A stretch of DNA of 64,000 bases from Nitrosopumilaceae archaeon (GCA_030038445.1 JASHOW010000025.1:1281-65280), one strand, 5' to 3'; positions 22,574 to 47,376 are shown, counted from the stretch's first letter. Program-made: numbers and translations. Notes: generated from the letters alone by a model not told the origin.

Positions 22574-22888
22574 CTAGACAACGCCTACTTCATGTAGTGT
22601 AATTAGACCATTATCCCCAATAATCGCTTTGATTGCTGGCAATATAATTTCAATTTTTTTCAGCTCATCAATCACCTCTATTAATAATGGCATGTTAACT
22701 GATATTCCGTCTATCTGAAAATTGGATTTTCCACGTTTACCATATCCAGCTACTCCCGTCCATACTGTAGCTCCAGATATTTTTCCGTTCTTTAGAATAT
22801 CTAATACTAAGTTATGTACGCGTTTTCCATTGAAAGTGTCGTTGCGTTTGATTCGAATCACAAGCGACCACATTTCTAGAGTTCTCAT
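22574..22888 (-). CDS. DUF190 PII-like protein (usual CrcB partner)
   Basis: GATVW.G.AGYG, S..MPLLIEVID; ATGA overlap with crcB. Confidence 0.9.
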   Translation of the reverse strand: MRTLEMWSLVIRIKRNDTFNGKRVHNLVLDILKNGKISGATVWTGVAGYGKRGKSNFQIDGISVNMPLLIEVIDELKKIEIILPAIKAIIGDNGLITLHEVGVV

Positions 22889-23274
22889 CTAAATCCTCCT
22901 CCTAAGATTACGCTTACCAAAGTCTTGCCACCAAATATAGCGCCCAACGACAGCCCTACATTAGACAGTATATTAATTGCCACCATTAGGTATTGTTTAT
23001 TATCAATTAGGTTTGAGGCCTCAAGGGCAAATGAGGACATTGTGGTCAACCCTCCACAAAACCCTATTGCCACAAGTAATGCATATCGCTGATCAAGATT
23101 CCATTGTTGAGAGAAAACTGCAAAGGCTCCAAGAATAAAACTTCCAATGATATTTACCAACAGCACGTTTATAGAAAATGTTCCTAGTAAGAGTGGAGAT
23201 TTTGTTATGCCATACCGTAGAAAAACTCCCGATACTCCGCCAGCTGCAAGAAACAAGATTTCTATCATTTTCAT
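22885..23274 (-). CDS. crcB: Fluoride channel Fluc/CrcB
   Basis: GG..G..LRY, VN..GSF, GFCGGLTTMSSF; four TM helices. Confidence 0.95.
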   Translation of the reverse strand: MKMIEILFLAAGGVSGVFLRYGITKSPLLLGTFSINVLLVNIIGSFILGAFAVFSQQWNLDQRYALLVAIGFCGGLTTMSSFALEASNLIDNKQYLMVAINILSNVGLSLGAIFGGKTLVSVILGGGFR

Positions 23275-23276
23275 AT

Positions 23277-23564
23277 CTACTCATCAATATTCTTACTTAA
23301 ATTTGCTATCTGAAAACCCGTAATATGATGTGCGATTTTTTCGATTTGAGTTTCTGGAGTTAACTTTATTTGATGGTGATTTTTATCAAACGTTTTTCTG
23401 TACATTATTGAAGATCCTCTTTTACTTTTGGACTTACAGGTAGAATCATTTTCATTCCTTTTCCATGGCATATCGACCTTTTCTTTATTAATCCTGTTGT
23501 AACATCTAGTTACCTTGAATTTTGACTTGGTTTTCTGATGGCTTGGTGCATCACCTTGACTCAA
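23277..23564 (-). CDS. Basic hypothetical (spacer/coupling) ORF upstream of crcB
   Basis: TTGA overlap with the upstream HTH gene; ends 2 nt before the crcB ATG. Confidence 0.4.
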   Translation of the reverse strand: MSQGDAPSHQKTKSKFKVTRCYNRINKEKVDMPWKRNENDSTCKSKSKRGSSIMYRKTFDKNHHQIKLTPETQIEKIAHHITGFQIANLSKNIDE

Positions 23565-23812
23565 TCCTGCACAACCTCCGAAAATTTGAGATTGTATTTT
23601 GCCACTCTTCTGCGTCTCTCACCAATGATGTAGGTCTTTCTTATTACTCCTTGCCTTACCATGCTTTCTATTATTCTGTATGCTGTGCTTGAAGGGATCG
23701 CAAGCTCCAAGCTAATCTGAGAAACTGTCTTTGCATTATTTTGTATTGAGGTTCTAATGAGGTTGTTATATCTGGTTTCTTGTCTGCCTATTCTAGACAT
23801 GTTCCATATCAT
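23561..23812 (-). CDS. Small winged-helix (HTH) regulator
   Basis: KT.SQIS.EL.IP.STAYR; paralog of 31943-32176 and 50441-50731. Confidence 0.7.
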   Translation of the reverse strand: MIWNMSRIGRQETRYNNLIRTSIQNNAKTVSQISLELAIPSSTAYRIIESMVRQGVIRKTYIIGERRRRVAKYNLKFSEVVQD

Positions 23813-23939
23813 AACACAAAAATGTCATAACTTGTCGAGTCTTAACACACCGTTTTCTGTATTGTGTTCTGTTTTATTGTAAGAACAAGTAAAAAACTGG
23901 TTTTTTCTGTCCTTTCTCTCTGATAATACAAATCCTGTT

Positions 23940-25493
23940 TCATATTGGAGACTTCTTAAGCGTTGTGTCAGTTTTTGCAGCTACAGGTCTATAACCTACA
24001 TACTTTTTCCTTCTCACGTGTTTAATGGTATATACGGCTGCCACCGCAACCGCAGCTGGTACAAAGAACAGAGGCATCAGCCAAAAATTCACATCACTAT
24101 TTCTTGCAGGCTCTACCATGGGCATATTCATGTCTGAGTTTGTACCGTTTCCAGGCTTAACTATGGTTGTAAACTGAACATCCTGACCACTATGTGCAAT
24201 GTCAGAAAAATCAAATGTTACGGGGCCAGGATTACTGAATGTAAAATACTGATATGCCCCACCAAACTGTGTAGACTCTTCGATGTGATAGAGTTGCTGT
24301 CCGCCCTGAGTAATAGTAAAGATATAGTGAGCTGGTATTGCCTCGTTTTGTATGTTGTCGTATATTTGGTAAATGAATATTATCTGCTGTCCGGTTGTAA
24401 TGTAATGCGGCTCCCAGTCAAGGTCCAACTCATATGCCCTATCAGGAGTGAATCGTACGACTGGAAACTTCATGATCTGATTTCCGAAAGCGTCAGTGGG
24501 TACAAGTGCTGCTGGTTGTACAATTACATATCCCTGCATCCATGGATGAATCTCACAGAAATACTCGAATGTTCCAGAACGTGTGAACTTTTGAGTCCAA
24601 GACCCTCCAATTGGAATGGTACCGCTGTCAAAGAGGCCATCGGGTTGTCCAACTCCATTGCCAAGAAGACCAGCCCTGCCTACAGAGTGACCGCTTGTTA
24701 CAGTATGGACCTCCTTGTCTTGATTTATCCAAGTTACATTCTGATTTACTCCAATTGTGATAACGGATGGTTCATACCACATGGGAGCAGCAGTATTGTA
24801 GTTTGGATCATATGCCCCATAGGGGATCGTAACTACCTGATTTGTTCCTTTAGGCGCATCTGATACTGCAATGCGTGCACTGTACTTCGCGCCAAGCGTT
24901 ATACTGAGTATCTCGTTTGGCCCCTTCCATTCAGCGGAGCTTATATCAGGAGGACCGGCGCCGTACAGCTGGATCTGAAAGTTGACTGGGCTTACGTTCT
25001 GAAGTGGGTCAGTCACCTGTATGTCTGTACCAGTGACTGCAACTGCAGTCTCGTTTGAGATTATCAAGACGCCGTTGCCTTCCATCTGTTGTGCCCTTAT
25101 CCCATAATTCTCATACGGAATCAGATTTCCATTCGAATCTGTAAATTTTATTTGCAATGCAAGTGACTGGTCTGCCTCTATTGGGGTCGATGTAATGGTA
25201 GCACGAACAGAACCGTCAGATGAGACTGCAGTTCCTTCAATCAGTTGGTGGCTGTTAGTTCCTTGCTGTGCTACTATCTGAGGGCTGTAATACCCTGTCT
25301 GTGCAAAGGCAGATTCCTGCACCAGATACAAACTAAACAGCATGACTATGATCACGCCTCCCAGAAGAGACCTCTTGAGGATCTCATTAGGTCTGACATG
25401 TACAAGCAGGCATAAACCTCTCAATAGACTAATATCATTCTCCCTACGATTTCTTTGTTTTTTGTTCATTGATATATCTACCCCCAATTCCAT
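23940..25493 (-). CDS. Membrane-anchored cupredoxin (plastocyanin-like) protein with N-terminal extension
   Basis: HTVTSG...FDSG...YFCEIHPWM; signal peptide preceded by ~40 extra aa; C-terminal TM. Alternative start at 25469. Confidence 0.85.
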   Translation of the reverse strand: MELGVDISMNKKQRNRRENDISLLRGLCLLVHVRPNEILKRSLLGGVIIVMLFSLYLVQESAFAQTGYYSPQIVAQQGTNSHQLIEGTAVSSDGSVRATITSTPIEADQSLALQIKFTDSNGNLIPYENYGIRAQQMEGNGVLIISNETAVAVTGTDIQVTDPLQNVSPVNFQIQLYGAGPPDISSAEWKGPNEILSITLGAKYSARIAVSDAPKGTNQVVTIPYGAYDPNYNTAAPMWYEPSVITIGVNQNVTWINQDKEVHTVTSGHSVGRAGLLGNGVGQPDGLFDSGTIPIGGSWTQKFTRSGTFEYFCEIHPWMQGYVIVQPAALVPTDAFGNQIMKFPVVRFTPDRAYELDLDWEPHYITTGQQIIFIYQIYDNIQNEAIPAHYIFTITQGGQQLYHIEESTQFGGAYQYFTFSNPGPVTFDFSDIAHSGQDVQFTTIVKPGNGTNSDMNMPMVEPARNSDVNFWLMPLFFVPAAVAVAAVYTIKHVRRKKYVGYRPVAAKTDTTLKKSPI

Positions 25494-25496
25494 TAG

Positions 25497-25558
25497 GTAG
25501 ACATTATTAGCGCCTTCTGGAGCAGTTTAGGAATCATTCCACGGCTAATGTCATAGCC
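25497..25558 (-). ncRNA. Fluoride (crcB) riboswitch aptamer, copy 1
   Basis: Minus strand GGCTATGACATTAGCC...TAAACTGC...GCTAATAATGTCTAC; P1, P2 and the GACATT/AATGTC pseudoknot match the crcB consensus. Confidence 0.9.
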
Positions 25559-25766
25559 TACAGCTTTTCCATCTATGTATCTACTATTAAGGATTTTCAT
25601 GATCCGTTTTTCGACACTTTCTTTACTAACATTAGACAGACAAAGAGGAGTAAAGATACGTGTTTGTTTTCTATCTTGAGTATGAGATCATACAACATAG
25701 AAAAACAATGCTGCAAAAATAAAGAAAAATAAATTATTCAAATTTAAATGAAAACATGTGTTAGAA

Positions 25767-26768
25767 TTAAATTCTAAAGGTTTGAGCAGAATCGTCTTCA
25801 AAAGACATATCGTCCTGAAACAATCTTGTTCGTAACTCTTTGTACCTGTTTCTCACAGTAACTTCAGTTACGCCAGATGCGCCTGCAATATTTTTCTGAG
25901 TTATTTTATTACCATTCATCATACAAGAAAGATACAATGCGGATGCTGCAAAACCAAGCGGATCTTTGCCAACAACAATATTAAATTCAGTTGCGCGTTG
26001 AATAATTTCTAGTGCTTTACGCTTTGTCTTTTCATTTATGTTGGTTTTACTTGCAATTCTTGCTACGCATTTCGTGGGATCTGCTATAGGCATTTTAAGA
26101 TCTAGTTCTCTGAGAATCAACCTGTAACATGCTGCCATCATTTTTTTGTTCACGTTAATTTCCTTTGAAATATCTTTTAGACTACGTGGAGTTTCAGTGT
26201 ATCTACATGCGGCGTAAAGAGAGGCGCCAAGTATCCCAGAAATGCTTCTACCTCTAGTCAGACCTTTATCGACCGCCTTTCTGTAAATATATGCAGCTTG
26301 TTCCAATATAACATACGAAAGTCCTAGTGAGTCTTTTAAGCGATCAAGCAAAGTAAAAGCTATACGAAGGTTTTTACTGTACATAGTATCAGTTTGACTA
26401 CGGCTATCCCACTTTCGTAGTCTTTCAATTGCATATTTCATGGGTGCAGAAAGTGGCCTGCCAAACGCATCTTTATCTACAGTACCAATAATGGTTGCAA
26501 GACCCATGTCATGTTTTGCAAGTGAATAGTGAGAACCGCTTCTAGCATTTCTGACATCATCATTGGACGGAACTCTTTCGGGTCCCAAGTCCTCAATTCT
26601 TTCTATCAGAACAAACCCACAATTATTACAGATTAATTCACCAGTTTCTGCATCAGCTATTATAATTCCTTTTTTACAGAAGAAGCAGCTTCGTTCCGCC
26701 TTGTTAATTTTGGTTAATTGTCTCGTTTTTGGATCTCCGGTGATCTCCATGTCATCATATGATGCCAT
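25767..26768 (-). CDS. tfb: Transcription initiation factor IIB paralog, downstream of a riboswitch
   Basis: C..C...GELICNNCG, HDMGLAT, GKDP, GVTEVTVRNRY. Confidence 0.93.
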   Translation of the reverse strand: MASYDDMEITGDPKTRQLTKINKAERSCFFCKKGIIIADAETGELICNNCGFVLIERIEDLGPERVPSNDDVRNARSGSHYSLAKHDMGLATIIGTVDKDAFGRPLSAPMKYAIERLRKWDSRSQTDTMYSKNLRIAFTLLDRLKDSLGLSYVILEQAAYIYRKAVDKGLTRGRSISGILGASLYAACRYTETPRSLKDISKEINVNKKMMAACYRLILRELDLKMPIADPTKCVARIASKTNINEKTKRKALEIIQRATEFNIVVGKDPLGFAASALYLSCMMNGNKITQKNIAGASGVTEVTVRNRYKELRTRLFQDDMSFEDDSAQTFRI

Positions 26769-26870
26769 TTATCTTACATCCAAGATTAATGCACGATCAA
26801 CATCATCAACAATACAACGGCATTCATCGTCAGATTTATTTTGTGATTTTTTTATCATCATGTCCACCAT
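26769..26870 (-). CDS. Riboswitch leader ORF (33 aa) abutting tfb
   Basis: Manual translation MVDMMIKKSQNKSDDECRCIVDDVDRALILDVR*; TAA is immediately followed by the tfb ATG. Confidence 0.5.
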   Translation of the reverse strand: MVDMMIKKSQNKSDDECRCIVDDVDRALILDVR

Positions 26871-26877
26871 TATGCTG

Positions 26878-26943
26878 GTAGACATTATCAGCATCGCACG
26901 ATGCAGTTAAGGAGCTAGTTACTCCATGGCTAATGCCATAGCC
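26878..26943 (-). ncRNA. Fluoride riboswitch aptamer, copy 2
   Basis: GGCTATGGCATTAGCC...TTAACTGCATCGTGCGATGCTGATAATGTCTAC. Confidence 0.9.
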
Positions 26944-27051
26944 GCGTTCCATACTCAGGTGACAATATTAAATCTTATGAATGCATACGATCTTCGTCAT
27001 GATTACAAAATAGTATCATCGGTTTTTTAGTCGGAATTACGAAATAAGGTT

Positions 27052-27855: not shown

Positions 27856-27935
27856 CAAGTAAAAGTACGCCTGATAAAAATAAGAAAGATCAAAGATTGT
27901 ACCTACTATCATAATACTAGTAACTGAAGAAAAAA

Positions 27936-28577: not shown

Positions 28578-28829
28578 ATACTACAAAATATTTATTTATT
28601 AGATTTAGGAACTTTTCTTAAATTTTTTTAATCTTCAAGTCATGAGTGTTCTATGAGTTAATATTGCCTAATCTCGTTTTTTCAAAATATTAACAGATGT
28701 TTTCAAGATGAAAAATGTAGAAGTATCTACAAAAATGAGAATCATACGACAAAGAAGAGAGAACCATCAAACTAAACAATGAGAAACAGAAGTGTTATAA
28801 GATTTTCAATTCTTAAATCATATAGAAAC

Positions 28830-30068
28830 ATGCCCAAGATAACCTCAATTAGTGGAACAGTTGTTTACAATAGCAGAGGGCACAAGACAATCGAGGTTAG
28901 TGTAATTTCTGACAACAAGTATCTTGGAAGAGTTTGTGCGCCGTCAGGAGCAAGTGTAGGTAAACATGAAGCAATAAATTTTCCAGACAATAATCCTCAA
29001 AAAAGCCTCGATATATTACGATCAAACGAAAAAAAGTTCATAGGGCTTGATCCCTCTGACTTGAAATCAATTCATGAGACATTGAGAAAAATAGATTCGA
29101 CTACAAATTATTCAGAGATCGGTGGGGCCGTTGCATTTTCTCTGACTATTGCATCAACAGAGTCAGCGGCAAGATCAGAAGGAGTTCCATTATTCAAGAT
29201 ATTGACCAAAGACGCTCATCTTAGACTACCATTTCCATTAGGCAATATTTTAGGCGGTGGTGCTCACGCCGGTATAGGAACCCCAGACATTCAAGAGATA
29301 TTGGTTTGTGCCATAGGATCAAAAACAATACGTGAATCTGCAGAAACAAATTTTTTGATACATCAAGAGCTTGGAAAGATGTTAGAGAGACATGATGCCA
29401 AGTTTACAAGAGGGAGGGGGGATGAAGGGGCATGGGCACCAAGAATAAACAATGACAAGGCTGTAGAATACTGTGCAGATACATGTGAAAAGTTGGGATA
29501 CACACTGGGTAAAGAAGTCTCATTGGGAATAGATTTTGCATCTTCGGTATTATGGAACGAGAAAAGGGGAAAATACGTCTATTCTAGACAAGGCATAGAA
29601 AGATCTCCAGAACAACAAATAGAATTTGTTTCAGAGATGATAAAAAAATACAAACTTGTTTGTGTGGAAGATCCAGTTCACGAAGACGCATTTGAAGACA
29701 TGGCAGAATTAACAAAAAAATTTCCGCGTATTCTTATAATTGGGGACGACATTGTGGTTACAAACCAAACACGACTGTCAAAGGCCATAAATACAAAATC
29801 ATGCAATGCTGTAATACTAAAGGTAAATCAGGCGGGAAGCCTGTATGATGCACTAGAATTTGCAAAATTGGCAAATAAAAACAACATGAAATTGATCACC
29901 TCACACAGATCTGGCGAGTCAACAGATAGCCACATATCTCACATAGGTCTTGCCACAAAATCAAATATGCTCAAAGTAGGTGTTGTGGGAGGAGAAAGAG
30001 TGGCCAAGATCAACGAATTGATTCGCATTTCTGAAGAAAATAACATACACAACATGGCAAATATTTGA
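28830..30068 (+). CDS. eno: Enolase (probably an extra copy)
   Basis: NSRG..T, APSGAS.G.HEA, GDEG, KVNQ.G, SHRSGES; start placed at MPKI. Confidence 0.95.
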   Translation: MPKITSISGTVVYNSRGHKTIEVSVISDNKYLGRVCAPSGASVGKHEAINFPDNNPQKSLDILRSNEKKFIGLDPSDLKSIHETLRKIDSTTNYSEIGGAVAFSLTIASTESAARSEGVPLFKILTKDAHLRLPFPLGNILGGGAHAGIGTPDIQEILVCAIGSKTIRESAETNFLIHQELGKMLERHDAKFTRGRGDEGAWAPRINNDKAVEYCADTCEKLGYTLGKEVSLGIDFASSVLWNEKRGKYVYSRQGIERSPEQQIEFVSEMIKKYKLVCVEDPVHEDAFEDMAELTKKFPRILIIGDDIVVTNQTRLSKAINTKSCNAVILKVNQAGSLYDALEFAKLANKNNMKLITSHRSGESTDSHISHIGLATKSNMLKVGVVGGERVAKINELIRISEENNIHNMANI

Positions 30069-31247: not shown

Positions 31248-31283
31248 GAATTAAATATTTTCCAATTTTTTTAATTTTTAGTC

Positions 31284-31942: not shown

Positions 31943-32176
31943 TCATATTGACAGACTGTATACTGCAACCCTCTTTCGATTTTTCCCAATAACATATCTT
32001 ATTTTCACGTATTTTAATTCGGCCAGTCTTTTAACTAATCTATATACCGTGCTTAGTGGAATGTCTGTTTTTTCACTGATAGTATTGATAGTTTTTTCAT
32101 TACTTCTTAATGATTCTATAATAAGTTTGTAGTATCTGCCTTGTATTCCAATATTTTTATCATTTTTATTTATCAT
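31943..32176 (-). CDS. Small winged-helix (HTH) regulator directly downstream of a riboswitch
   Basis: KTI..ISEKTDIPLSTVYR.V..L. Confidence 0.75.
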   Translation of the reverse strand: MINKNDKNIGIQGRYYKLIIESLRSNEKTINTISEKTDIPLSTVYRLVKRLAELKYVKIRYVIGKNRKRVAVYSLSI

Positions 32177-32193
32177 GTCTACTAATCCTCCAT

Positions 32194-32256
32194 GTAGACA
32201 TTATCAGCATCGCGCGATGCAGTTTAGGAGCTTATTCCATGGCTAATGCCATAGCC
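32194..32256 (-). ncRNA. Fluoride riboswitch aptamer, copy 3
   Basis: GGCTATGGCATTAGCCATGGAATAAGCTCCTAAACTGCATCGCGCGATGCTGATAATGTCTAC. Confidence 0.92.
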
Positions 32257-32367
32257 AACAGGTTAAAAATCCGAAATAGTAGATTTAAACTTTCAGACAT
32301 GTATACGAAATGGAGTTTCAAACCATAATCAATGTAAAATCCTAAATCAGAGAAATTTTAATTAGAT

Positions 32368-34832: not shown

Positions 34833-34836
34833 GGAT

Positions 34837-35619: not shown

Positions 35620-35628
35620 TTTTTCACC

Positions 35629-36966: not shown

Positions 36967-36983
36967 TTTGCACTCTCCATTTT

Positions 36984-38456: not shown

Positions 38457-39108
38457 TCAACTGATCCAGATCCGATGGTTCTAGTGTTTTGAATGCATCT
38501 CTTTGCGCAGAAAGAATAACGCCGATGATCACAACTCCCATCACATCAAGCACTACAGCAAATTCCGTTAAGAGCTGTATTCCTGGGGCAATCAAAGCTC
38601 CCATATACAAAATACCATTTTCTTCTTGTATGTATCCGCACATTTGTGTAAGCGAGTTTTTTCTTGTAATAATCAGAAGAAATCCGAGTAAAAGAAGAAC
38701 GAATGGAATCGATATTTCAGGATTTGAAAAATATGGCAACACAACAGATTTGAATATAGCATATCCAATTATGATGATGATAATGCCTGTCAATACAAGT
38801 GACGGAGTTTTCTGGCTTGTACCAGTTTCTCTAAGCTTATGTCTGAAGTGTTTTACTTGGTAGAGCATAACTAACGGAAACACAATGCCACGCATGACTC
38901 CTGTTATAATAGCAAGGTAGAGGAGATTCAGATCGTCTGTGTGTAAAAACAAAATAACTATGAGTGCAGTAATTAGTAGGGATTGGATTGCTATGGCACG
39001 TATTGTTGGATCTACAAAGGATTGACCTTGCATATAGAGACTAGACAGGAGTACAGATATTCCTAGAAAACCTACTATTTCCTCGTAAAATGGAACTACA
39101 AAGACCAA
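38449..39108 (-). CDS. hyfE: HyfE-like membrane subunit
   Basis: Seven TM helices, Q..GY..EENG, E..V.LD. Confidence 0.8.
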   Translation of the reverse strand: MVFVVPFYEEIVGFLGISVLLSSLYMQGQSFVDPTIRAIAIQSLLITALIVILFLHTDDLNLLYLAIITGVMRGIVFPLVMLYQVKHFRHKLRETGTSQKTPSLVLTGIIIIIIGYAIFKSVVLPYFSNPEISIPFVLLLLGFLLIITRKNSLTQMCGYIQEENGILYMGALIAPGIQLLTEFAVVLDVMGVVIIGVILSAQRDAFKTLEPSDLDQLSG

Positions 39109-39109
39109 T

Positions 39110-40075
39110 TTACGTCACTTTTCCTCCTAAAAATAGCGCAAGAATGGAAAGTAATGCTAAACTAAAGGAAATTGAGAGAAAATCCAATATTTTGAAGAGG
39201 CGCAGCTTGGCAAATGTTTCTTCTATTATAACTATAATAACAATCAGGGCAAGCAGTTTAAAAAACAGGGTACCAACTGAATAAAGTGCGCCAGTTACAC
39301 TTACATCCCCAGACATCCACCAGGGAATAACGAATACATTAAGAAACACAGCCATCAAAAGAAATTGTTTCATGTATCCTCCCCATCTTGATATGGCAAG
39401 CAGTTTGCCGGAATATTCTATTACCTTCGCATCATCTATCATGCCAAATTCTACAAGACCTGAGCTTTCTACTGGGAGTCTTCCTGTTTCAACTAAGATT
39501 AGCATGAAGAAGGCAGCCATAACAAGGATATGAGTAGCAGAAAGATACCAAGAGGCAGAACTTGCCAATAGATTGTTTGTCGTATACGGATTGTTTGTAC
39601 CTGTAATCATGGCAACTGCAATGAAGATCATGATTAGTGTTGGTTCCGCCAATGCGGTAAATGAAGCGCTACGGCTTGCGCCCATTGTTGAATAATTAGT
39701 ACGAGCATCTATTGCGGCTATAATACTAATTACACCTGCAAACCCAAACATGAGAGCTCCTCCAAGTAGATCCAACAATATACCATATGGAAGAGGATAT
39801 GGTGTCACGATAGGAACTACTAGAGAGATTACTAGATATGCCACAAATGAAACTAGGGGAGCTATGACAAAGAACGATGATGATTTTTCAGGTACAACAA
39901 CTTCTTTTCTTAGAAGTTTAGATAGATCATAATACGGTTGAAAGATTGATGGGCCATGTTTGGATTCAATCATGGATTTTAAACGATTTATGATTCCAGC
40001 AATTAAAGGAGAAAGAAACAACACTGTACCAATTTGAATTATATTTATCAGTTGAAGCGTGATTGGGTCACTCAT
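39110..40075 (-). CDS. hyfC: HyfC/HycD/NuoH-like membrane subunit
   Basis: GPSIFQPYYDL.KL..KE, GASR, ETGRLPV, EYSG. Confidence 0.88.
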   Translation of the reverse strand: MSDPITLQLINIIQIGTVLFLSPLIAGIINRLKSMIESKHGPSIFQPYYDLSKLLRKEVVVPEKSSSFFVIAPLVSFVAYLVISLVVPIVTPYPLPYGILLDLLGGALMFGFAGVISIIAAIDARTNYSTMGASRSASFTALAEPTLIMIFIAVAMITGTNNPYTTNNLLASSASWYLSATHILVMAAFFMLILVETGRLPVESSGLVEFGMIDDAKVIEYSGKLLAISRWGGYMKQFLLMAVFLNVFVIPWWMSGDVSVTGALYSVGTLFFKLLALIVIIVIIEETFAKLRLFKILDFLSISFSLALLSILALFLGGKVT

Positions 40076-40257
40076 TTTTTGTCACCTTTTTTAAAAGAAT
40101 GATTTATTCTATATGCGACAATATATTTTGAAGTAGGTTGCTCAATAATAAAATCATCGTATATTGAATTCAATCTCTCGTTATAATCCAATATACTATA
40201 GTCAAGCATCCATGTCTCCAGTATTTTTTGATTTTGGTTCACTTTTGATCTTTCCAC
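40072..40257 (-). CDS. Riboswitch leader ORF (61 aa) coupled to hyfC
   Basis: GTG start 5 nt after the aptamer; ATGA overlap with hyfC. Confidence 0.5.
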   Translation of the reverse strand: MERSKVNQNQKILETWMLDYSILDYNERLNSIYDDFIIEQPTSKYIVAYRINHSFKKGDKK

Positions 40258-40262
40258 TATCT

Positions 40263-40322
40263 GGAGACATTATCATCCCTTTAGGGCAGTTTAGACGTAT
40301 AGTCAAGGCGAATGTCATCGCC
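40263..40322 (-). ncRNA. Fluoride riboswitch aptamer, copy 4
   Basis: GGCGATGACATTCGCC...TAAACTGCCCTAAAGGGATGATAATGTCTCC; canonical GGCG/CGCC P1. Confidence 0.88.
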
Positions 40323-40542
40323 CTATTGAATTAGTAATGGTGCCTAGCTAAGATTAAAAATGTTGCTCTGAAAGAATTCATTAACTAATCTGATCCTATT
40401 TGTCATTCATCCTTGTTTAAGTATATAACTCATTTTTCTCATAAGGTACGAAAGGTTTTCCGGCGATTTTATCCGCGTCCATATCACACATAACTCTCAG
40501 ATTTAAAAGATAGATTTAACATGTTGTAAACCAACTTTAGTA

Positions 40543-40890
40543 GTGTATTTTATGACTAATGACCCAAATGTTTTAAAGAACCAGACAAAAATGTGGCGTC
40601 TTTTGATCCAGTTTAGGAAAACCGATAAGATTGGAGATGCATTATTAAGAACCGAGTTGATGGCATTATTCAAAAAAGCTGACATATCTGGTGCAACCGA
40701 ATGGTCTGGAATAGGCGGGTATGGTAAACATGGAAAATACTACCAACAACAAGAAGGAATATCAATGGATGCTCCAATGATGTTAGAAGTAATTGACGAA
40801 GTTTCTAAGATCAAGATAATTTTACCAATGCTCAAGGATATTGTAAATGATCATGGATTGATTAGTATCCACGAAGTCATTGTAGTTTAA
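40543..40890 (+). CDS. Second DUF190 PII-like protein
   Basis: ISGAT.W.G.GGYG, S.DAPMMLEVID. Confidence 0.85.
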   Translation: MYFMTNDPNVLKNQTKMWRLLIQFRKTDKIGDALLRTELMALFKKADISGATEWSGIGGYGKHGKYYQQQEGISMDAPMMLEVIDEVSKIKIILPMLKDIVNDHGLISIHEVIVV

Positions 40891-41016: not shown

Positions 41017-41613
41017 TCAAGATTTGTTTGCATGTATGTCATCAAGAGAAAAGCCATGTCGAAAAGTCTCATTTTTTTCTGCAAGAGATAAGAGAAGTTT
41101 CTTATCATCTTCTTCTAATCTGATAAAACAATCTTTAGCACCACTACCCATACCATACGCAAAATCAGGCGATAGGTAAGAAAAATCAAAGATAATTTTC
41201 CTCATATTTGATTTTAGTTTGTAGAAATTATAGCCTATGGCATATCCCATCTTGGTTGCAATGAAGGAGTCATTTTTTGCAAGTTCAATCAAACTTAACA
41301 TTGATTCTATGGTAATCTTTCTCATGTGGTTTCCAAGACTGCTGCAGAATTTGTTTGCCACTTCATGATTTGATTTGCACAGATCTAATACGATTTTTTT
41401 TGTCTGATCACGTGCATTTGCAAACTTCCATCCTGCCCCTTGTCCAAACGCTCCTGCAAATACTTTGTTTGTATCTATCAATCCTATCACGCTACGTCGT
41501 ATTCCCTCTGATAACCTATCAAAGATAGACCCATAATAGAATCCAAGTTCATAATCTAATTCAGGATCAAATCCTGCAGTTACAAGTAACGAACCTTTTG
41601 AATTTTTATTCAT
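41017..41613 (-). CDS. Helical-repeat hypothetical protein
   Basis: About four repeats of F/IA..(L/M)G..xG..F..(L). Confidence 0.55.
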   Translation of the reverse strand: MNKNSKGSLLVTAGFDPELDYELGFYYGSIFDRLSEGIRRSVIGLIDTNKVFAGAFGQGAGWKFANARDQTKKIVLDLCKSNHEVANKFCSSLGNHMRKITIESMLSLIELAKNDSFIATKMGYAIGYNFYKLKSNMRKIIFDFSYLSPDFAYGMGSGAKDCFIRLEEDDKKLLLSLAEKNETFRHGFSLDDIHANKS

Positions 41614-41623
41614 ATCTAGTCAT

Positions 41624-41764
41624 TTATTGTTTGGCATATTGATCAAGGTTGAAAATACTTTCAGAACCGCAGCTTGGGCAATTCCACACTATCCTAGTTC
41701 CTATATACTTTGAATATACAACGCCACAATGTGCACATACTCTAAGGCTACTGGTCTTAACCAT
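41624..41764 (-). CDS. Small Zn-ribbon protein (46 aa, not in the ORF track)
   Basis: MVKTSSLRVCAHCGVVYSKYIGTRIVWNCPSCGSESIFNLDQYAKQ*; overlaps the ferredoxin stop. Confidence 0.65.
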   Translation of the reverse strand: MVKTSSLRVCAHCGVVYSKYIGTRIVWNCPSCGSESIFNLDQYAKQ

Positions 41765-42257
41765 CTTTGTATGCCTCTGCTGCTTTTTTATGAACTTCTA
41801 AATTAGCTTGGTCTACCTTGATTGCCTGTGTTGGACACACTGTAACACATGCCATACACCATATACAGTCGTGTTCTCTTACGGGCTCTGATTTATCAGT
41901 AAAATCTTTACGCTCATCTCTTACACAGCTACCTGTTCCAGCGCTAGTACCATTGATCATCTGTTCTGCAGGAATATCATTTTCTGTTCTGTACCACTGA
42001 TAGACCTGAACAGGGCATACATCTATACAACCTCCATCTGCAATACATGAATCCCAATCAACTGCTACAGAAGTACCATGCACACCCAAAGGAACAAGCC
42101 GTTCTCCCCTTTTTTCATAGTCAGCCATTACCTTAGGTTCGGAAGCCGCCTCTGCTTCTTTTCCAGGGCCCCAAACAAAATAGAAATTTTTTCCATTATC
42201 ATTATTGCGTTTCCCTATCACACGATAATTATCTGGAAATTTTAGATCAATTGGCAT
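41757..42257 (-). CDS. Dicluster ferredoxin (thaumarchaeal type)
   Basis: CIADGGCIDVCP and CIWCMACVTVCP. Confidence 0.9.
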   Translation of the reverse strand: MPIDLKFPDNYRVIGKRNNDNGKNFYFVWGPGKEAEAASEPKVMADYEKRGERLVPLGVHGTSVAVDWDSCIADGGCIDVCPVQVYQWYRTENDIPAEQMINGTSAGTGSCVRDERKDFTDKSEPVREHDCIWCMACVTVCPTQAIKVDQANLEVHKKAAEAYKDG

Positions 42258-42328
42258 TATTCTTTGCCTCCAAAAACTTGTTGTTAACTTCTTTTACTGT
42301 AACACAGAATACAGCGGTTTCATATTCG

Positions 42329-42847
42329 TTATTTTGCATTGTGTTTCATCTCACTTTGGTTAAATTTTATTTTGATTAAATTTGATATTAAAAATGCTAG
42401 TTGAAATACGTTAAGATCTTTTTGTACAAAGACAGATAGAATTTCCTCGCTTATGGGAAAATCTATTGATACCAATTTGTCTGAGTACGATATAGTGAAG
42501 TTTATTGCACCAAAGTATTTGTCGTATGCTTTTTTCATCCTATTTCCTAATGCAATCTGTGCAAGTAGGATTTCTTGTTCTTTCGGATCTAAGATTTCCC
42601 ATTGTATTTTTTTATTTTGTACAAGCACTGTTCCTTTGAAATCTATTATTCCAGCAAATATTATTTTATGATCAAGGTTGATAATTTCATTACAGATAGA
42701 TTCCAGCATATCGGTTTGAATCAATTCGGTTCTTTGTTTGATTGAGTTAATACTATTGTCATGTGCTATAGTTGAAGATACTAGGCCGTTATGACAGTCC
42801 ATACTGGTTTTTCTCCTCTCTATTCTTGATTTTGATTTTTTATTCAT
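42329..42847 (-). CDS. Roadblock/longin-like thaumarchaeal domain protein with ~46 aa N-terminal extension
   Basis: C.EI..LD..I.FAGIID..G...D..FG pattern; directly downstream of a riboswitch. Confidence 0.6.
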   Translation of the reverse strand: MNKKSKSRIERRKTSMDCHNGLVSSTIAHDNSINSIKQRTELIQTDMLESICNEIINLDHKIIFAGIIDFKGTVLVQNKKIQWEILDPKEQEILLAQIALGNRMKKAYDKYFGAINFTISYSDKLVSIDFPISEEILSVFVQKDLNVFQLAFLISNLIKIKFNQSEMKHNAK

Positions 42848-42867
42848 TGGTCTACCTGCTTTGCATT

Positions 42868-42965
42868 GGTAGACATTATCAGCTTCTTCTAGAGCAGTTT
42901 AGGATTCTCCATGGCTAATGTCCTAGCCTAATCTAATATATCATCATTCACATTTTTAAAGTTTT
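42868..42965. repeat. 98-bp direct repeat (promoter plus riboswitch), first copy
   Basis: Matches 46366-46463 with one mismatch (42951 C versus 46449 T). Confidence 0.9.
42869..42928 (-). ncRNA. Fluoride riboswitch aptamer, copy 5 (conserved U7 replaced by G)
   Basis: GGCTAGGACATTAGCC...TAAACTGCTCTAGAAGAAGCTGATAATGTCTAC. Confidence 0.82.
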
Positions 42966-43190
42966 TTGTCATTGTAACAATTCGATTTGAAATACTGAAT
43001 TCTTTTCCATTGTTATTGTAATAACTAAGATCTAGGGTAGATAAAACAAGAAAAGAACCAAATGGTAAACTATTCATCTAGACATAGATCAATTCTTTGA
43101 TATTGGTATTAGAGAATCTACATAAACGGCATGATGTGGCAATACAAAAAACCATGAAAAATGATTTTTTGGTTAGTAAAATTCATCGTC

Positions 43191-43697
43191 TTAATGATGT
43201 GCCCCAAATTTTTCCATGCCTCTACTGTAGAAATCAAGAAACGCCTCGAAATCTACAGGCTCGTCTAAAATTTCTGCCATCTTTATTACTTTATCTACTA
43301 CAACAGCACACTGTTGTCTGAAATTATTCTCATTAAATTCTATTACAGTCAATTTTGTCTTTATACTTTGTATTTCCTCTAGATTATCATTAACTATCAG
43401 TATAACTTTCAATCCTTTTCCTTGTGCATAGCCTATTTCCTGATTAATCAGACTTGAATTAAGAAAATCCGAAGTAAGAACCGCAATAAAGCAGATGGAT
43501 AAGCGAATCATATCTTTTATTTCGTCAAAAATAAAATTACCATAAGATTCACTATTTGACATATAAGCCCCAAATCCTTTTTCCCCGAGCATATGTTCTA
43601 AAACAGACGCTTTTTCACAATCTTCTTTGGCATAACATACAAATACTTTAAATTTATGGTGCGGTTTCTCTGGTTTTCCTGTATTACCTTGACTCAA
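43191..43697 (-). CDS. Stand-alone TIR-domain protein
   Basis: KVFVCYA.ED, FIAVLT.DF..S...NQEIGYA with the putative catalytic Glu. Confidence 0.8.
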   Translation of the reverse strand: MSQGNTGKPEKPHHKFKVFVCYAKEDCEKASVLEHMLGEKGFGAYMSNSESYGNFIFDEIKDMIRLSICFIAVLTSDFLNSSLINQEIGYAQGKGLKVILIVNDNLEEIQSIKTKLTVIEFNENNFRQQCAVVVDKVIKMAEILDEPVDFEAFLDFYSRGMEKFGAHH

Positions 43698-43801
43698 TTT
43701 TTATCTCCTCTGTTACAATTAGACTTAGCATTTGGCAAGTGCGATCTATAGTCACAGCTAAGTTTTTTGTAAGAAAAATTTGTACCCAGTTTGTATTTCA
43801 T
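43694..43801 (-). CDS. Riboswitch leader ORF (35 aa) coupled to the TIR gene
   Basis: MKYKLGTNFSYKKLSCDYRSHLPNAKSNCNRGDKN*; TTGA overlap with the TIR start. Confidence 0.45.
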   Translation of the reverse strand: MKYKLGTNFSYKKLSCDYRSHLPNAKSNCNRGDKN

Positions 43802-43827
43802 TTGTCTATCTACCTAAATCCCATTCG

Positions 43828-43892
43828 GCAGACATCATCAGCACCTTTTCGGGAGCGGTTTTGGCTTTTACACCAAGGCTAATGTCATAGCC
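43828..43892 (-). ncRNA. Fluoride riboswitch aptamer, copy 6
   Basis: GGCTATGACATTAGCC...AAAACCGCTCCCGAAAAGGTGCTGATGATGTCTGC. Confidence 0.88.
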
Positions 43893-44190
43893 ACTTTTTA
43901 TTCGCTAGATGATTTTTTAAGTTTTGCTATATGTCAGAATTTGTTGCGATTTCATTTTGAAATCATGGGTTTTGATCAGAGCTGCAAACTAATCTTTTAA
44001 TTCTACAGATAGAAGTAATATTTTCTAACTAGGATGGAGAACCTATAACGTATAGAAAAGATCTATAGTGGAAAAAGTCCAGGAGACAGAATCGTATTCC
44101 ACGTAAGAGGAGAACTAAACAGTTTATGTCAGTAAGATGGACTAGTTCTCAGATAAATGTTCATCAAGACAAAAATAACTTGGTTTCGAA

Positions 44191-45360
44191 TTATTTTGTT
44201 TTAGCAAGTATTACTGCTCCAGCCAAGCTAAATAGTGCCGCGAATCCAAAACCATACGATGGAGAAAATACAGTCCACAACACGCCTACTATGGTACTTG
44301 ATACAAAATCACCTAATCCATTCACAGTGCCTAGAACGCCATAACCTATTGTAACGGATTTCTTTTCTAACATACCTCCCGATACGGCTCCTTCAAGTGC
44401 GTCTACTCCAGATACATATAGTCCTGAAATTGAAAAGAGTACGACAAATGTCCAAATATCTGGATGTAGGAAAATAAAGCCCACAAAACATATAGTAGCT
44501 AGTAGATATGTTGTGACTAGAACTCTCTTCCTTCCCATTCTGTCTCCAAGATAGCCTAACGGGAAAGATGCGGCTGCATAGACCACATTTCTTACAATGT
44601 AAAAAGATGCAGACAATATTGATGCTTTCAATAAACCAAATTCTGGGGTTAGACTAGTTGTAGCATAGAGTATAAGTAATGTAGGGGCAAAATCACCTAC
44701 TCCGAATATACCCACCCCAAGCAAAAAGTTTTTGAAATTCTTTGGTAGATCTCGCATACTTGAGAAGAATCTCACATTATCATTTTTTTTGGCAAATTTA
44801 TCTTTGACAAAAAATGCAAAGAGAAGTGCGGCAAATACTGCAGGTATGACAGAATACCACATGATCTCTCGGTAATTAATAAGTGGAAGTATTACAAGAG
44901 CGGCTACTGGTCCACATATAGCACCAAGTGTATCGCCTGCTCTGTGTAACCCAAATGCCTTACCAAGATCGTTTGCATCAACAGACTCTACCAGAATTGC
45001 ATCGCGTGGAGGACCTCTAATTCCCCTCCCAAACCATCCAAGTACACGCCCAAATAGTACTTGCAAGAAACCTGAGGAAGTCGCCATAATTATTGGCATC
45101 AAGGATGTCAATAGATAACCCAAGACACTGAACTGTTTCTTCTTCCCTACCTTGTCAGAATAATAGCCAGATCCCATCTTAGTGAAGCTTGATGCTGCAT
45201 CAGATGCTCCCTCTATCAATCCCAAGGCAGCTGCACCTATGCCCATCGTTGCGAGAAAAGCCGGCAGTATAACAGTGACTGCCTCATGACTAAAGTCACT
45301 TAAGAAACTTGTGGCACTCATAGATGCCACATTCCTATTAAGCCAGTTTGTTTTTTTCAT
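44191..45360 (-). CDS. MFS transporter
   Basis: Twelve TM helices, G..SDKVG.K, GRGIRGPPRDA, G.LGDRMGRK. Confidence 0.92.
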   Translation of the reverse strand: MKKTNWLNRNVASMSATSFLSDFSHEAVTVILPAFLATMGIGAAALGLIEGASDAASSFTKMGSGYYSDKVGKKKQFSVLGYLLTSLMPIIMATSSGFLQVLFGRVLGWFGRGIRGPPRDAILVESVDANDLGKAFGLHRAGDTLGAICGPVAALVILPLINYREIMWYSVIPAVFAALLFAFFVKDKFAKKNDNVRFFSSMRDLPKNFKNFLLGVGIFGVGDFAPTLLILYATTSLTPEFGLLKASILSASFYIVRNVVYAAASFPLGYLGDRMGRKRVLVTTYLLATICFVGFIFLHPDIWTFVVLFSISGLYVSGVDALEGAVSGGMLEKKSVTIGYGVLGTVNGLGDFVSSTIVGVLWTVFSPSYGFGFAALFSLAGAVILAKTK

Positions 45361-45520
45361 AATTGATTATTACTGTCACTTGTTGTAGAATCACGCGAAA
45401 CAACACAAAAACCATTCGCGATATGTTAATGGAGAAACGAGTATTCCTCAAAGTACGTGATTCGTCCAAAGTGTATCTCATTTTTACTATATTTTTATCC
45501 AACATGTACCTAGATTCCAT
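45338..45520 (-). CDS. Riboswitch leader ORF (60 aa) overlapping the MFS start
   Basis: ATG 3 nt after the aptamer; 23-nt overlap with the MFS gene. Confidence 0.45.
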   Translation of the reverse strand: MESRYMLDKNIVKMRYTLDESRTLRNTRFSINISRMVFVLFRVILQQVTVIINYEKNKLA

Positions 45521-45523
45521 CAG

Positions 45524-45591
45524 ATAGACATTATTAGCAGAGCATCTTTGCGAGCAGTTTAGGAGCTTATTCCATGGCTAATGCCATAGCC
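45524..45591 (-). ncRNA. Fluoride riboswitch aptamer, copy 7
   Basis: GGCTATGGCATTAGCCATGGAATAAGCTCCTAAACTGC...GCTAATAATGTCTAT; first 38 nt identical to copy 3. Confidence 0.88.
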
Positions 45592-45702
45592 TACTTAAGT
45601 AGCTTTTAGCATTACTTTTAATCTTTCTTTTTTGTAAATTTTTGTCCAGATTATGTGTGTATTAATTCCATGTCTTTCCAAAGATCCAGATTAAGAAAAC
45701 TG

Positions 45703-45903
45703 CTATGAATCTTCCCATTGAATCTCATCTAATATTTGGTGGATCTCTTTTTCATAAGAGAGAGTTAACTTTCCATTCATTTTCAGTACAAAGTTTTCTG
45801 CCCAGCTTTGTGCTGCCCACAAAGCAGCCTCTTTTCCCAATTTAGGATGTTTTGTACGATAATATTCATATTGTTTTCTTATTCCTTTTTCAAGGTCTTT
45901 CAT
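45703..45903 (-). CDS. Small hypothetical protein
   Basis: ATGA overlap with the AsnC-like gene. Confidence 0.55.
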   Translation of the reverse strand: MKDLEKGIRKQYEYYRTKHPKLGKEAALWAAQSWAENFVLKMNGKLTLSYEKEIHQILDEIQWEDS

Positions 45904-46166
45904 ATCATCGTCTTACCTTCTTGTTCTTCGTTGACCAACATGGTTGTAGTTGAGGTTATCTTGTCGATTTTTCTAATTTCTTTGAGAATGTCTTTCATAT
46001 CATTCATGCTATTGCATTCTGCTCTTACGACTATATCATATACGCCGTTTACTCCTTGTATTTCGTATTTTACAGATTGATCATTCCTGTTGATTCCTTT
46101 GATTGTTCTGATTATTTCAACCTCCGAACCCGGATTATTAGTTAATAAGATGTACACAACTGTCAT
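45900..46166 (-). CDS. Lrp/AsnC ligand-binding (RAM) domain protein
   Basis: YILL...PG.E.E, V.GVYDIVV, IRKID.I.ST.TM; start placed at MTVVY. Confidence 0.8.
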   Translation of the reverse strand: MTVVYILLTNNPGSEVEIIRTIKGINRNDQSVKYEIQGVNGVYDIVVRAECNSMNDMKDILKEIRKIDKITSTTTMLVNEEQEGKTMI

Positions 46167-46363
46167 GTTTTTCCCCTTAGAAATGTGCTCAAGATGGACT
46201 TTGAAGGCTGTTTGAACGTACAACAAAAATAAGACTCGAGATGTTTGCTATGTAGTTTGATTTGTGAAAAGACATAACTTTTTAATGATAAAATATTTTG
46301 ATTACATGTTCCTCCTACTATGCTTGAATTTAGTTCTTTCATGCTATCTACCCATTTTTTCAT
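46163..46363 (-). CDS. Riboswitch leader ORF (66 aa) coupled to the AsnC-like gene
   Basis: ATG 3 nt after the aptamer; ATGA overlap at 46163-46166. Confidence 0.5.
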   Translation of the reverse strand: MKKWVDSMKELNSSIVGGTCNQNILSLKSYVFSQIKLHSKHLESYFCCTFKQPSKSILSTFLRGKT

Positions 46364-46365
46364 TC

Positions 46366-46463
46366 GGTAGACATTATCAGCTTCTTCTAGAGCAGTTTAG
46401 GATTCTCCATGGCTAATGTCCTAGCCTAATCTAATATATCATCATTCATATTTTTAAAGTTTT
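46366..46463. repeat. 98-bp direct repeat (promoter plus riboswitch), second copy
   Basis: 97/98 identical to 42868-42965. Confidence 0.9.
46367..46426 (-). ncRNA. Fluoride riboswitch aptamer, copy 8 (identical to copy 5)
   Basis: Same sequence as 42869-42928. Confidence 0.82.
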
Positions 46464-46576
46464 GTAGACTGAATTGGATTCGATTTAATTTGAAATACAC
46501 GTATTTTTTATCAAGTTACTATCATGATCATAATTGTTACATTTCAGATTATTACGTGAAGTTATCATCACTAAAA

Positions 46577-47376
46577 TTAACTCCTCGAATATGTTCCTAT
46601 TAACAATGTTTCATTGATAATATGTCCTGTCATGGTTTGTTCCAGATCACTTCGTGTCGCATTTTGATCAAGATTAAGAACGATATCTAAAGCATATAAT
46701 GTAAAGAAATACCTATGAATGCCAGATGGCGGGCATGGCCCTTTGTATCCGATCGTTCCGGCACTTGTCATTCCCTGAGGAAATGACATGTTCTCTCCTC
46801 CAGTAAACACCGTCTTGTTTACTGGGATATTCCATACAACCCAATGCGTAAATGGGCCTCTTGGTGCATTAACATCCACTACAGTAAGCGCAAGACTTTT
46901 CGCGGTTTGCGGAACCCCTGATATTGTTAGAGGCGGGGACGTGCTATTTCCATCACATGTATATTGTGATGGAATGGTGTCATTATTTTCAAAAGCAGGA
47001 CTAGATAGTTCAAAAATTTGAACAGGTTTTAGTTGAATAATATTTTTCTGCACCAAGTATGAGAGTCCTTTTACAAAATCATCATTCCCATAGTTCCGTT
47101 TGCCCACCAGCCAGCATTGTTTCTAACCCACGTTGGAATCTGCTGCACTCCAGGAGTTGCAGTAGAGTTTGCTTGTGTAGGTATCTGGATTATTCCTTGC
47201 TGTATCAGGTATTGTATTCCCTTGACAAAATCTGAATCACCCACTTGCCCTTGGTACCACCATTTGGCAGTGTTTTTTACCCATAGCGGTATCTGGATTG
47301 CGTCAGCGTGAGAATTCACAAGAGATATTGTAAAAAATACAATAACAAAAAATGCCATACAAACAGAGAGTTGCAC
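46577..47376 (-). pseudogene. Frameshifted secreted protein: WVKNxAxWW repeats plus YbhB/YbcL (PEBP) domain
   Basis: Two overlapping ORFs join into ...WWANGTMG/NDDFVKGLSYL... if one A is added near 47085; PEBP motifs FTHWVVWNIP and GPCPP.G.HRY. Confidence 0.75.

Follow-up and report, generated by a model that had tools for sequence, protein, structure and literature searches.

We describe here an array of eight fluoride-class aptamers in the DNA of a peat archaeon. The window, by which we mean the whole 64-kb stretch that was analysed (Nitrosopumilaceae archaeon, GCA_030038445.1, JASHOW010000025.1:1281-65280; contig C57 of a 1.49-Mb genome that is 89.7% complete), carries the elements RS1 to RS8 on its minus strand within ~21 kb at the crcB locus. 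These eight elements are aptamers of the fluoride class (crcB motif), and we consider it likely that they are functional fluoride riboswitches which act as translational ON units and form an expanded regulon at the ancestral crcB locus.

A literal consensus of the element, GGCKAKGRCATTMGCC, has eight exact matches in the window, all on the minus strand, where 0.00 are expected from 100 shuffles. In a cmscan comparison of the whole window with all 4227 Rfam families, the crcB model RF01734 (gathering score 34 bits) matches at the same eight sites with E-values of 1e-7 to 8e-4, and nothing else credible was found. Four of the matches lie above the gathering score, at 36.4-40.2 bits: RS6 (43822-43901, 40.2 bits), RS2 (26872-26952, 38.6 bits), RS4 (40257-40331, 38.5 bits) and RS3 (32188-32265, 36.4 bits). 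The other four are RS5 (42863-42937, 32.5 bits), which has an AGG loop variant, RS8 (46361-46435, 32.2 bits), RS1 (25491-25567, 31.1 bits) and RS7 (45518-45600), which has a long P2 loop and the lowest score, 28.4 bits. No further RF01734 match is present in the window or in the whole genome. A preliminary description of this DNA had placed eight minus-strand copies here and anticipated about eight matches to RF01734; eight were obtained, four of them past the gathering score, and each position it gave falls 6 nucleotides (nt) inside the 3' end of the corresponding match. A lineage-specific covariance model, R1, built from 30 distinct aptamers of the genus, scores the eight elements at 63-80 bits (80.2 for RS3, 77.8 for RS1, 71.9 for RS2, 70.4 for both RS5 and RS8, and 65.5 for RS7) and the next-best place in the genome at 12.8 bits. 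This gap argues that there are no hidden plus-strand copies, and no aptamer was found on that strand of the window with either RF01734 at E<=10 or R1. The scores of both models, together with the conservation of structure, bear out the earlier assignment to the crcB/fluoride riboswitch fold.

Pairing was assessed in an alignment of 30 distinct aptamers, with 500 shuffles and slid-partner controls. P1 is paired in 100% of cases, with two of its four pairs changed on both sides, and the inner pairs of P2 also include changes on both sides. The six pairs of the pseudoknot are likewise 100% paired, and pairs 8-74 and 12-70 each have one two-sided change, both in a single sequence, G032, a relative from another family. 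Measured against the Rfam consensus, the pseudoknot is doubly compensated, being GGAGU/ACUCC there and GRCAU/AUGUC here. The aptamers also contain an extra hairpin between P1 and the AAC linker, which the Rfam model treats as an insertion of 10-16 nt; it is 98.9% paired and has two-sided changes at two of three pairs. The observed pairing values were reached by none of the 500 shuffles, and the slid controls are only 30-52% paired. Invariant columns include A5, G7, AAC and U..AU.AUG.CU, and RS1 and RS7 have CUAAU instead of CUGAU, as do some relatives. The preliminary description had claimed covariation in both P1 and the pseudoknot from the eight copies themselves. This holds for P1, where RS4 has G-C in place of the U-A of the other window copies, but not for the pseudoknot, where the copies in the window differ only by wobble (A-U/G-U and U-A/U-G).

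Expression platforms and leader reading frames

Every unit has an A-rich stretch resembling a B recognition element (BRE) and a TATA-like box ~30-35 nt upstream of P1. At the other end of the aptamer, the 3' strand of the pseudoknot (AUGUCUACC) is complementary to a downstream segment (GGUAGACAU) that abuts or covers an AUG; this complement begins after 6-39 nt and the AUG follows. The anti-pseudoknot helix so formed has 7-10 bp, and in 33 of 35 distinct leaders, taken genus-wide, it ends at -2 to +5 nt from the AUG. Its arms are compensated, both in RS4 relative to the other copies (GUCUCCAG/CUGGAGAC) and in G032 (AUGCCU/AGGCAU). Minimum free energy structures computed with ViennaRNA contain P1, the extra hairpin, P2 and the anti-pseudoknot hairpin in seven of the eight leaders (for RS2, -34.7 kcal/mol with a z of -3.8). 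There is no U-tract after the hairpin, and the sequence there is A-rich. The alternative helix suggests the platform of a translational ON switch.

The geometry of hairpin and AUG can be followed in each module. In RS1 (25469-25567) a 10-bp hairpin at ~25474-25504 ends 4 nt before the AUG at 25469, while the hairpins of RS2 (module 26859-26952, hairpin 26860-26885) and RS3 (module 32174-32265, hairpin 32175-32201) cover the AU of the AUGs at 26861 and 32176 respectively. RS4 (40207-40331) has a long-loop hairpin at 40212-40270 and AUGs at 40213 and 40209. The AUG is at 42847 in RS5 (42845-42937, hairpin 42850-42874), at 43801 in RS6 (43799-43901, hairpin 43808-43833), at 45505 in RS7 (45503-45600) and at 46342 in RS8 (46340-46435, hairpin 46345-46373). 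We propose that a unit comprises a promoter with BRE-like and TATA-like elements, a short 5' leader, an aptamer with P1, the linker hairpin that is specific to this lineage, P2 and the 6-bp pseudoknot, and the platform. In the absence of fluoride the anti-pseudoknot hairpin would form and the initiation site would be occluded, and binding of the Mg-F complex would lock the pseudoknot and expose the AUG, such that translation could begin.

The cargo genes of RS1, RS3 and RS5 would be started directly at the platform AUG. In RS2, RS4, RS6, RS7 and RS8 a leader open reading frame (ORF) would be started first, and the organisation of the sequence suggests that the cargo is then probably expressed through termination-reinitiation coupling. 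The RS2 leader (26769-26861, 30 codons) ends with a TAA that abuts the start of a TFB gene (TAAATG), leaving a distance of 0 nt. Overlaps of 4 nt (-4) are seen where the 45-codon RS4 leader (40072-40209) meets the first gene of its operon at an ATGA stop/start and where the 35-codon RS6 leader (43694-43801, MKYKL...) meets a TIR-domain gene at TTGA. The RS7 leader (45338-45505, 55 codons) has a 23-nt out-of-frame overlap with the start of an MFS transporter gene, and the RS8 leader (46163-46342, 59 codons) overlaps an Lrp-like gene by 64 nt. Experiments in archaea have demonstrated coupling at -4/-1 overlaps (PMC6728339, PMC10666635), and it fits best at the first three of these junctions, with their distances of 0 or -4 nt.

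Leaders are also present at orthologous TFB, NuoH-like, TIR and Lrp-like genes elsewhere (G048, L136 and L057). In G048, a metagenome-assembled genome (MAG JOPF002) of another species, the orthologous TFB gene is preceded by a 47-codon leader, and the orthologues of the RS4 operon have leaders of 48 and 51 codons in G048 and L136. The TIR gene of L057 has a related leader in front of it, the aptamer of G006 (L014) is followed by a similar MKYKL leader with a TIR homologue ~220 nt downstream, and the RS8 leader is conserved in G048 with 38% identity and the same overlap. The leader peptides show little conservation past the first dozen codons, and it seems to be the arrangement that matters, not the peptide.

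Insertion site, growth of the island and rival readings

The flanking radical-SAM gene is 91-95% identical to those of Nitrosotalea MAGs and of Ca. Nitrosotalea sp. TS, and the window DNA is present in a peat metagenome. The archaeal, acidophilic host proposed in the preliminary description thus takes shape as a member of Nitrosotalea, a genus of ammonia oxidisers. In 12 named relatives the same site has the order left326 - DUF190 - crcB - (cupredoxin) - one aptamer - PEBP - radical-SAM gene, and it differs here by ~21 kb with seven further units between RS1 and PEBP. Across the 12 loci the content of the site ranges from 0 to ~21 kb, usually with one aptamer. The right flank (PEBP, orf101 and the radical-SAM gene, 46577-48557) is conserved and anchors the site in all relatives. 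Aptamer counts in 63 genomes of the genus are 0-3, apart from G048, which has seven on one contig, and in 150 genomes of the family, from 27 genera, every other genus stays at two or fewer. A number of switches far above the norm, as had been claimed for this DNA, is therefore apparent at both levels, although acidophily by itself cannot account for the expansion, given that a single switch is retained by most congeners.

In G048 the island is bounded by the same flanks, with cargo that is homologous but rearranged; it includes an aptamer-leader-TFB unit and a DUF6659-TFB2-TIR-Lrp operon behind one aptamer. Contigs from Joint Genome Institute (JGI) metagenomes provide a third, partial instance, in which aptamers precede the same six-gene operon as RS4 and the neighbours are Usp, pyrophosphatase, MFS and enolase genes and transposases. 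Of 57 other aptamer units surveyed across the genus, about 50 lead to crcB and a few lead to TIR, to DUF6659-ferredoxin-TIR-orf198, to orf198 or to Usp; none of the 57 has a TFB or a Hyf-like operon behind the aptamer. Variants of the site include an aptamer-TIR unit (L050) and an aptamer-wHTH-TIR-crcB arrangement (L065; wHTH, winged helix-turn-helix). In L051 (Centralia_MAG_78) a phage-integrase-family gene (3910-5019, plus strand) and three unknown ORFs occupy the exact island site, which identifies the crcB-PEBP junction as an integration hotspot. Mobility signatures were sought in the window, and no tRNA, no shift in G+C content (GC) and no terminal repeats were found (GC is 0.35-0.41 in the island and 0.37-0.44 in the flanks); the long repeats in the window are aptamer modules only.

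These modules retain traces of how the island may have grown. RS5 and RS8 share a 98-nt segment comprising promoter and aptamer (repeat D4) that is identical at 97 of 98 positions and stands before unrelated genes. The 5' halves of RS3 and RS7 are 98% identical, and the 3' halves of RS2 and RS3 are 95% identical. Near-identical modules and mosaic halves point to copying and recombination of regulatory cassettes, and we propose that the regulon expanded in this way, together with gene gain at a variable hotspot.

Several observations weigh against eight equivalent translational ON switches in the order given. Four of the eight aptamers fall under the RF01734 gathering score (28.4-32.5 bits, E-values 4e-5 to 8e-4), in part because RF01734 gives no credit for the compensated pseudoknot and counts the inserted hairpin against them. 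Column 6, in the P1 loop, is U in 29 of the 30 distinct aptamers and G only in RS5 and RS8 (42913-42928 and 46411-46426; GGCUAGGAC vs GGCUAUGAC), which might alter affinity or folding. The RS7 platform hairpin is weak or imperfect, and the fold of that leader has a z of -0.03. The 3' arms of the platform (GGUAGAC, GGUGGAC and CUGGAGAC) have Shine-Dalgarno (SD)-like cores of 3-4 nt, and since the resemblance is weak we refer to occlusion of the AUG region, not to SD sequestration. The overlaps of the RS7 and RS8 leaders with their cargo (23 and 64 nt) are beyond those shown to couple. Read depth is ~4-8x, and the repeated cores of the aptamers interrupt the independent unitigs.

There are several alternatives to consider. 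The switches could act on transcript yield, with translation of the leader ORF in response to fluoride, or the folding of the RNA, protecting nascent RNA from premature termination, polarity or decay; termination would occur at oligo-T tracts or through a factor acting on untranslated RNA, and the leader ORFs would be the control point. Five of the eight units do have long (100-180 nt) ORF-bearing leaders, three of which contain T5 tracts, and in T. kodakarensis an 86-nt riboswitch RNA accumulates alone (PMC4247193). However, no T-run directly follows the hairpin, T5 is common at ~38% GC, and three units have no leader ORF. Moreover, in 33 of 35 leaders the distance from helix to AUG varies by no more than a few nt, as occlusion of initiation predicts, and we regard control of yield as rather unlikely. 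We think it distinctly improbable that only some of the copies sense fluoride, with RS5 and RS8, or RS7, being decaying duplicates, constitutive, or changed in ligand. The lower Rfam scores of RS5, RS7 and RS8, the loop G confined to RS5 and RS8, and an RS7 leader that folds no better than shuffles are what such a model would invoke, but all eight copies score 63-80 bits with R1 and keep the pairing of P1, P2 and the pseudoknot. RS5 and RS8 in addition retain good platform hairpins and intact cargo, and their variant was copied recently together with its promoter.

The number and arrangement of the copies could also be an artefact of assembly, through mixing of strains or chimeric joins in the aptamer cores, for which the low depth, the mosaic halves and the ends of Logan unitigs inside RS3, RS5, RS7 and RS8 might be cited. 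We give this very little credence, because G048, an independent MAG from another study, has seven units at the same site with homologous cargo, intermediate forms occur in G056 and in the JGI contigs, and the copies differ from each other in sequence. Each of the eight 5' and eight 3' flanks, all of them distinct, is covered at >=99% identity, and an independent contig spans the whole of RS4, so the existence of eight units is solid. Their order rests on the MAG assembler, and unitigs from the peat runs neither confirm nor refute it. We favor eight functional translational units, as set out above.

Proteins encoded behind and beside the aptamers

RS1 heads the ancestral fluoride operon (22574-25469), which by Pfam encodes a cupredoxin, a wHTH protein, orf95, CrcB/Fluc and DUF190. 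The cupredoxin has 509 residues counted from the AUG at 25469, which is probably its true start, the wHTH protein has 83 and CrcB/Fluc has 129; the latter is the single PF02537 (crcB) match in the whole genome. We note that in many Nitrosotalea the first gene after the aptamer, before crcB, encodes a protein of ~389 residues that has no Pfam family and an N-terminal hydrophobic segment, judged by eye, which makes it putatively exported. An example is L057:7222-8391 (minus strand), with homologues in G048 and many loci of the genus, and other loci have a cupredoxin of ~510 residues.

Behind RS2 and its leader lies a TFB (TFIIB) paralogue of 333 residues (25767-26768, minus strand, as are all genes behind the aptamers; Pfam TFIIB 4.6e-39). 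It is full length, with two cyclin repeats and an intact Zn ribbon (CFFC...CNNC), the Zn_Ribbon_TF match being under its cut-off (25.8 bits vs 29). It is 61% identical to the housekeeping TFB and 65% identical to a TFB of G048 (C37:72055-72957) that is also behind an aptamer. A pattern scan of the named genomes with the island TFB gave no match, because the closest copy in a six-frame search of the genus is merely 65% identical. RS3 leads directly from its platform AUG into a small winged-helix protein of 77 residues (31943-32176; Pfam, TrmB/IclR/MarR-type HTH), a homologue of which is behind the aptamer in L065.

The RS4 operon (32796-40075) has six genes, for NuoH/HyfC-like, HyfE-like, HyfF-like, NuoD-like, NuoB-like and HyfB-like proteins related to complex I and Mrp (Pfam and NCBIfam, with all NCBIfam matches below their equivalog cut-offs). 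The large subunit (NuoD/hydrogenase-like, 35629-36966, 445 residues) has Cys152 and Cys380 only and lacks the CxxC Ni ligands, while in the NuoB-like subunit the Fe-S cysteines are intact and an extra CxxCxxC stretch is found at the N terminus. Identity as a group-4 [NiFe] hydrogenase or formate hydrogenlyase was considered and is ruled out by the missing Ni-ligand cysteines, which point to an Ehr-type, non-hydrogenase module; the complex is more probably an ion-translocating or redox module. Within the genus the operon was found in G000 and G048 only. The NuoD-like subunit is absent from other members, whose matches are canonical NuoCD at 32-34% identity, and homologues with 60-78% identity occur in other Nitrososphaerota; the complex is widespread in soil Nitrososphaerota and rare in Nitrosotalea. 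R1 found no aptamer beside the homologous operons of Nitrosopolaris and other Nitrososphaerota (L138-L141), but given the lineage specificity of the model and the short upstream flanks this does not speak for absence.

RS5 precedes genes for DUF6659 (172 residues), a 2x[4Fe-4S] ferredoxin (166 residues) and orf198 (41017-42847; Pfam), and the same set is behind an aptamer in G056. The RS6 cargo is a stand-alone TIR-domain protein of 168 residues (43191-43697; Pfam TIR_2 3.7e-10). TIR orthologues lie downstream of aptamers in at least seven other Nitrosotalea genomes, L050 (3224-3733), L057 (8577-9053), L065 (8158-8640), G048, G056, G006 and G041 (L169, behind crcB-DUF190), and in L055 (8794-9291) the TIR gene adjoins an aptamer but is not behind it. 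A TIR gene is also present at L048:9426-9902. The protein has an invariant NQxIGYAQGKGL block, and the putative catalytic Glu is present in five of six aligned orthologues and is Gly in G048. We found no listing of TIR proteins as fluoride-riboswitch cargo in the accessible literature. RS7 leads to an MFS transporter of 389 residues (44191-45360; Pfam MFS_1 4.2e-39), and RS8 to an Lrp/AsnC ligand-binding-domain protein of 108 residues with no HTH (45900-46226; Pfam AsnC_trans_reg 2.2e-8).

Other genes of the island have no aptamer. Those for a HAD phosphatase, a second enolase, ferritin/Dps, Rieske and Usp lie on the plus strand between 27052 and 32793 (Pfam), an interval shared with minus-strand orf213 and the RS3-wHTH unit, and a second DUF190 (PII-like) gene is at 40543-40890 (plus strand; Pfam 1.3e-15). 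The preliminary description had placed crcB, enolase, HAD, Usp, MFS and formate-hydrogenlyase-like subunits, as genes classically tied to the fold, in this interval. Pfam confirms that all of them are in the interval, but the enolase, HAD and Usp genes, being plus-strand and aptamer-less, are not led by a riboswitch. The island enolase (28779-30068, plus strand) is 69% identical to the other copy at G000:C68:2398-3642, and the single TAG in that match is, judged from the lengths, a normal stop codon and not a break. The enolase of the G048 island is only 32% identical to this one, and the two islands therefore acquired different enolases. The Usp and HAD genes are divergent from the RS3 and RS2 promoters across intergenic gaps of ~100 nt (32266-32367 and 26953-27051), and in G048 Usp is likewise divergent from an aptamer promoter; the promoter regions of such pairs may be shared or mutually interfering. 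Outside the island, a weak match to snoPyro_CD, an archaeal C/D-box small RNA, lies at 63027-63083 (minus strand; 21.9 bits, E = 4, far under threshold) and has recognisable C (AUGAUGA) and D (CUGA) boxes.

Taken together, the cargo suggests a regulon that would serve export (CrcB, perhaps MFS) and ion and energy homeostasis (the Ni-less Hyf/Ehr-like complex and ferredoxin), with a regulatory tier (the alternative TFB, two wHTH proteins and the Lrp-like ligand-domain protein) and a TIR protein. A dedicated fluoride regulon in an archaeon, as the preliminary description had envisaged, is supported as far as computation reaches.

The TFB paralogue and comparison with known systems

The presence of a riboswitch before a TFB paralogue would connect a general transcription factor with a defined chemical cue and offers a candidate inducer. 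We raise the tentative possibility that the TFB, once induced through its riboswitch, and the wHTH and Lrp-like proteins that are likewise riboswitch-led steer RNA polymerase towards aptamer-less genes as a second tier. That tier would comprise the spare enolase, HAD phosphatase, Usp, Dps, Rieske and the second DUF190, perhaps with further genes from other parts of the genome. The motif YCTAAATC was considered as a TFB target and rejected; three genomes have it ahead of Usp and it also precedes orf213, yet it is unenriched in the window (9 matches vs 6.8 +/- 2.8 expected). No other promoter motif shared among the aptamer-less island genes was found by eye, and the cascade therefore stays conjectural. 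Thaumarchaea have many TFBs of unknown role, and such a cascade, if real, would provide the first ligand-defined role among these paralogues and an archaeal, RNA-sensed counterpart of the cascades of extracytoplasmic function (ECF) sigma factors.

The lineage also supplies more than 60 natural variants of the promoter-aptamer-hairpin-AUG design, which could serve as a model for the gating of initiation in archaea, including through leader ORFs, and it offers an example of how a regulon may grow when promoter-aptamer cassettes are copied and recombined at a hotspot. The island further points to an accessory fluoride regulon in ammonia oxidisers of acid soil and peat that would include TIR, DUF6659, ferredoxin, orf198 and the Ni-less Hyf/Ehr-like complex. 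Hydrogen fluoride enters cells via weak-acid accumulation (PMC11139923), and the regulon may be relevant to nitrification in acidic soils bearing fluoride or aluminium-fluoride. In the literature that was searched we found no link between a fluoride riboswitch and a TFB, none between Nitrosotalea and fluoride biology, and no paper combining Ehr, hydrogenase, fluoride and riboswitch.

The island copies share with the fluoride riboswitch class (B. cereus crcB, P. syringae eriC-F and the T. petrophila structure) P1, P2 and the pseudoknot from loop to 3' tail, the unpaired core (AUG..., AAC and CUGAU.A...CUAC), the first link to crcB, and a platform that overlaps the 3' strand of the pseudoknot. 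They differ in the covarying 10-16-nt hairpin of the P1-P2 linker and in the doubly compensated pseudoknot, and the units differ in having archaeal promoters and an AUG-occluding platform with no terminator or strong SD. The presence of the class in archaea and most of its cargo classes were already known (PMC5473149, PMC11139923), and a 2017 census lists a single riboswitch in Thaumarchaeota (PMC5473149). The fluoride riboswitch of T. kodakarensis TK0513 is presumed to be translational and is described as the only natural archaeal riboswitch examined (PMC8241225, in its summary of Speed et al. 2018). It too is upstream of a first gene other than crcB, next to crcB, and its transcript has been seen (PMC4247193). 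TK0513 is, however, a single copy in a euryarchaeon, whereas the thaumarchaeon described here has eight units, known from sequence alone, whose cargo includes regulators and a TFB.

Eight switches are not a prokaryotic record, because Methylobacterium extorquens DM4 has at least 10 fluoride riboswitches, as reported second-hand in PMC6785547 and PMC11139923 from Baker et al. 2012. The regulon of DM4 likewise has many switches, but DM4 is a bacterial degrader of halogenated compounds, and we found no link to halogen metabolism for the archaeal island. The DM4 switches are not described as one 21-kb island in the accessible literature, whereas here all are at one locus of a 1.5-Mb genome. Known cargo of the class includes an exporter, antiporter-like/formate hydrogenlyase proteins, HAD and enolase (PMC11139923, via Baker 2012). 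A Hyf-like module behind an aptamer is thus shared with the formate-hydrogenlyase/Na+/H+-antiporter type of cargo, although the large subunit here is without Ni ligands (Ehr-type). Alternative TFBs are known from the expansion in Halobacterium (PMC3261711), the ultraviolet response of Sulfolobus TFB3 (PMC6101591) and the role of TFB2 in the cell cycle (bioRxiv 10.64898/2026.09.06.749720); expression tied to a condition is common to these and to the island TFB, but here a riboswitch in the leader of the TFB itself would read the signal directly. The switch class is thus a known one, and it is the scale and the cargo that are unusual for archaea.

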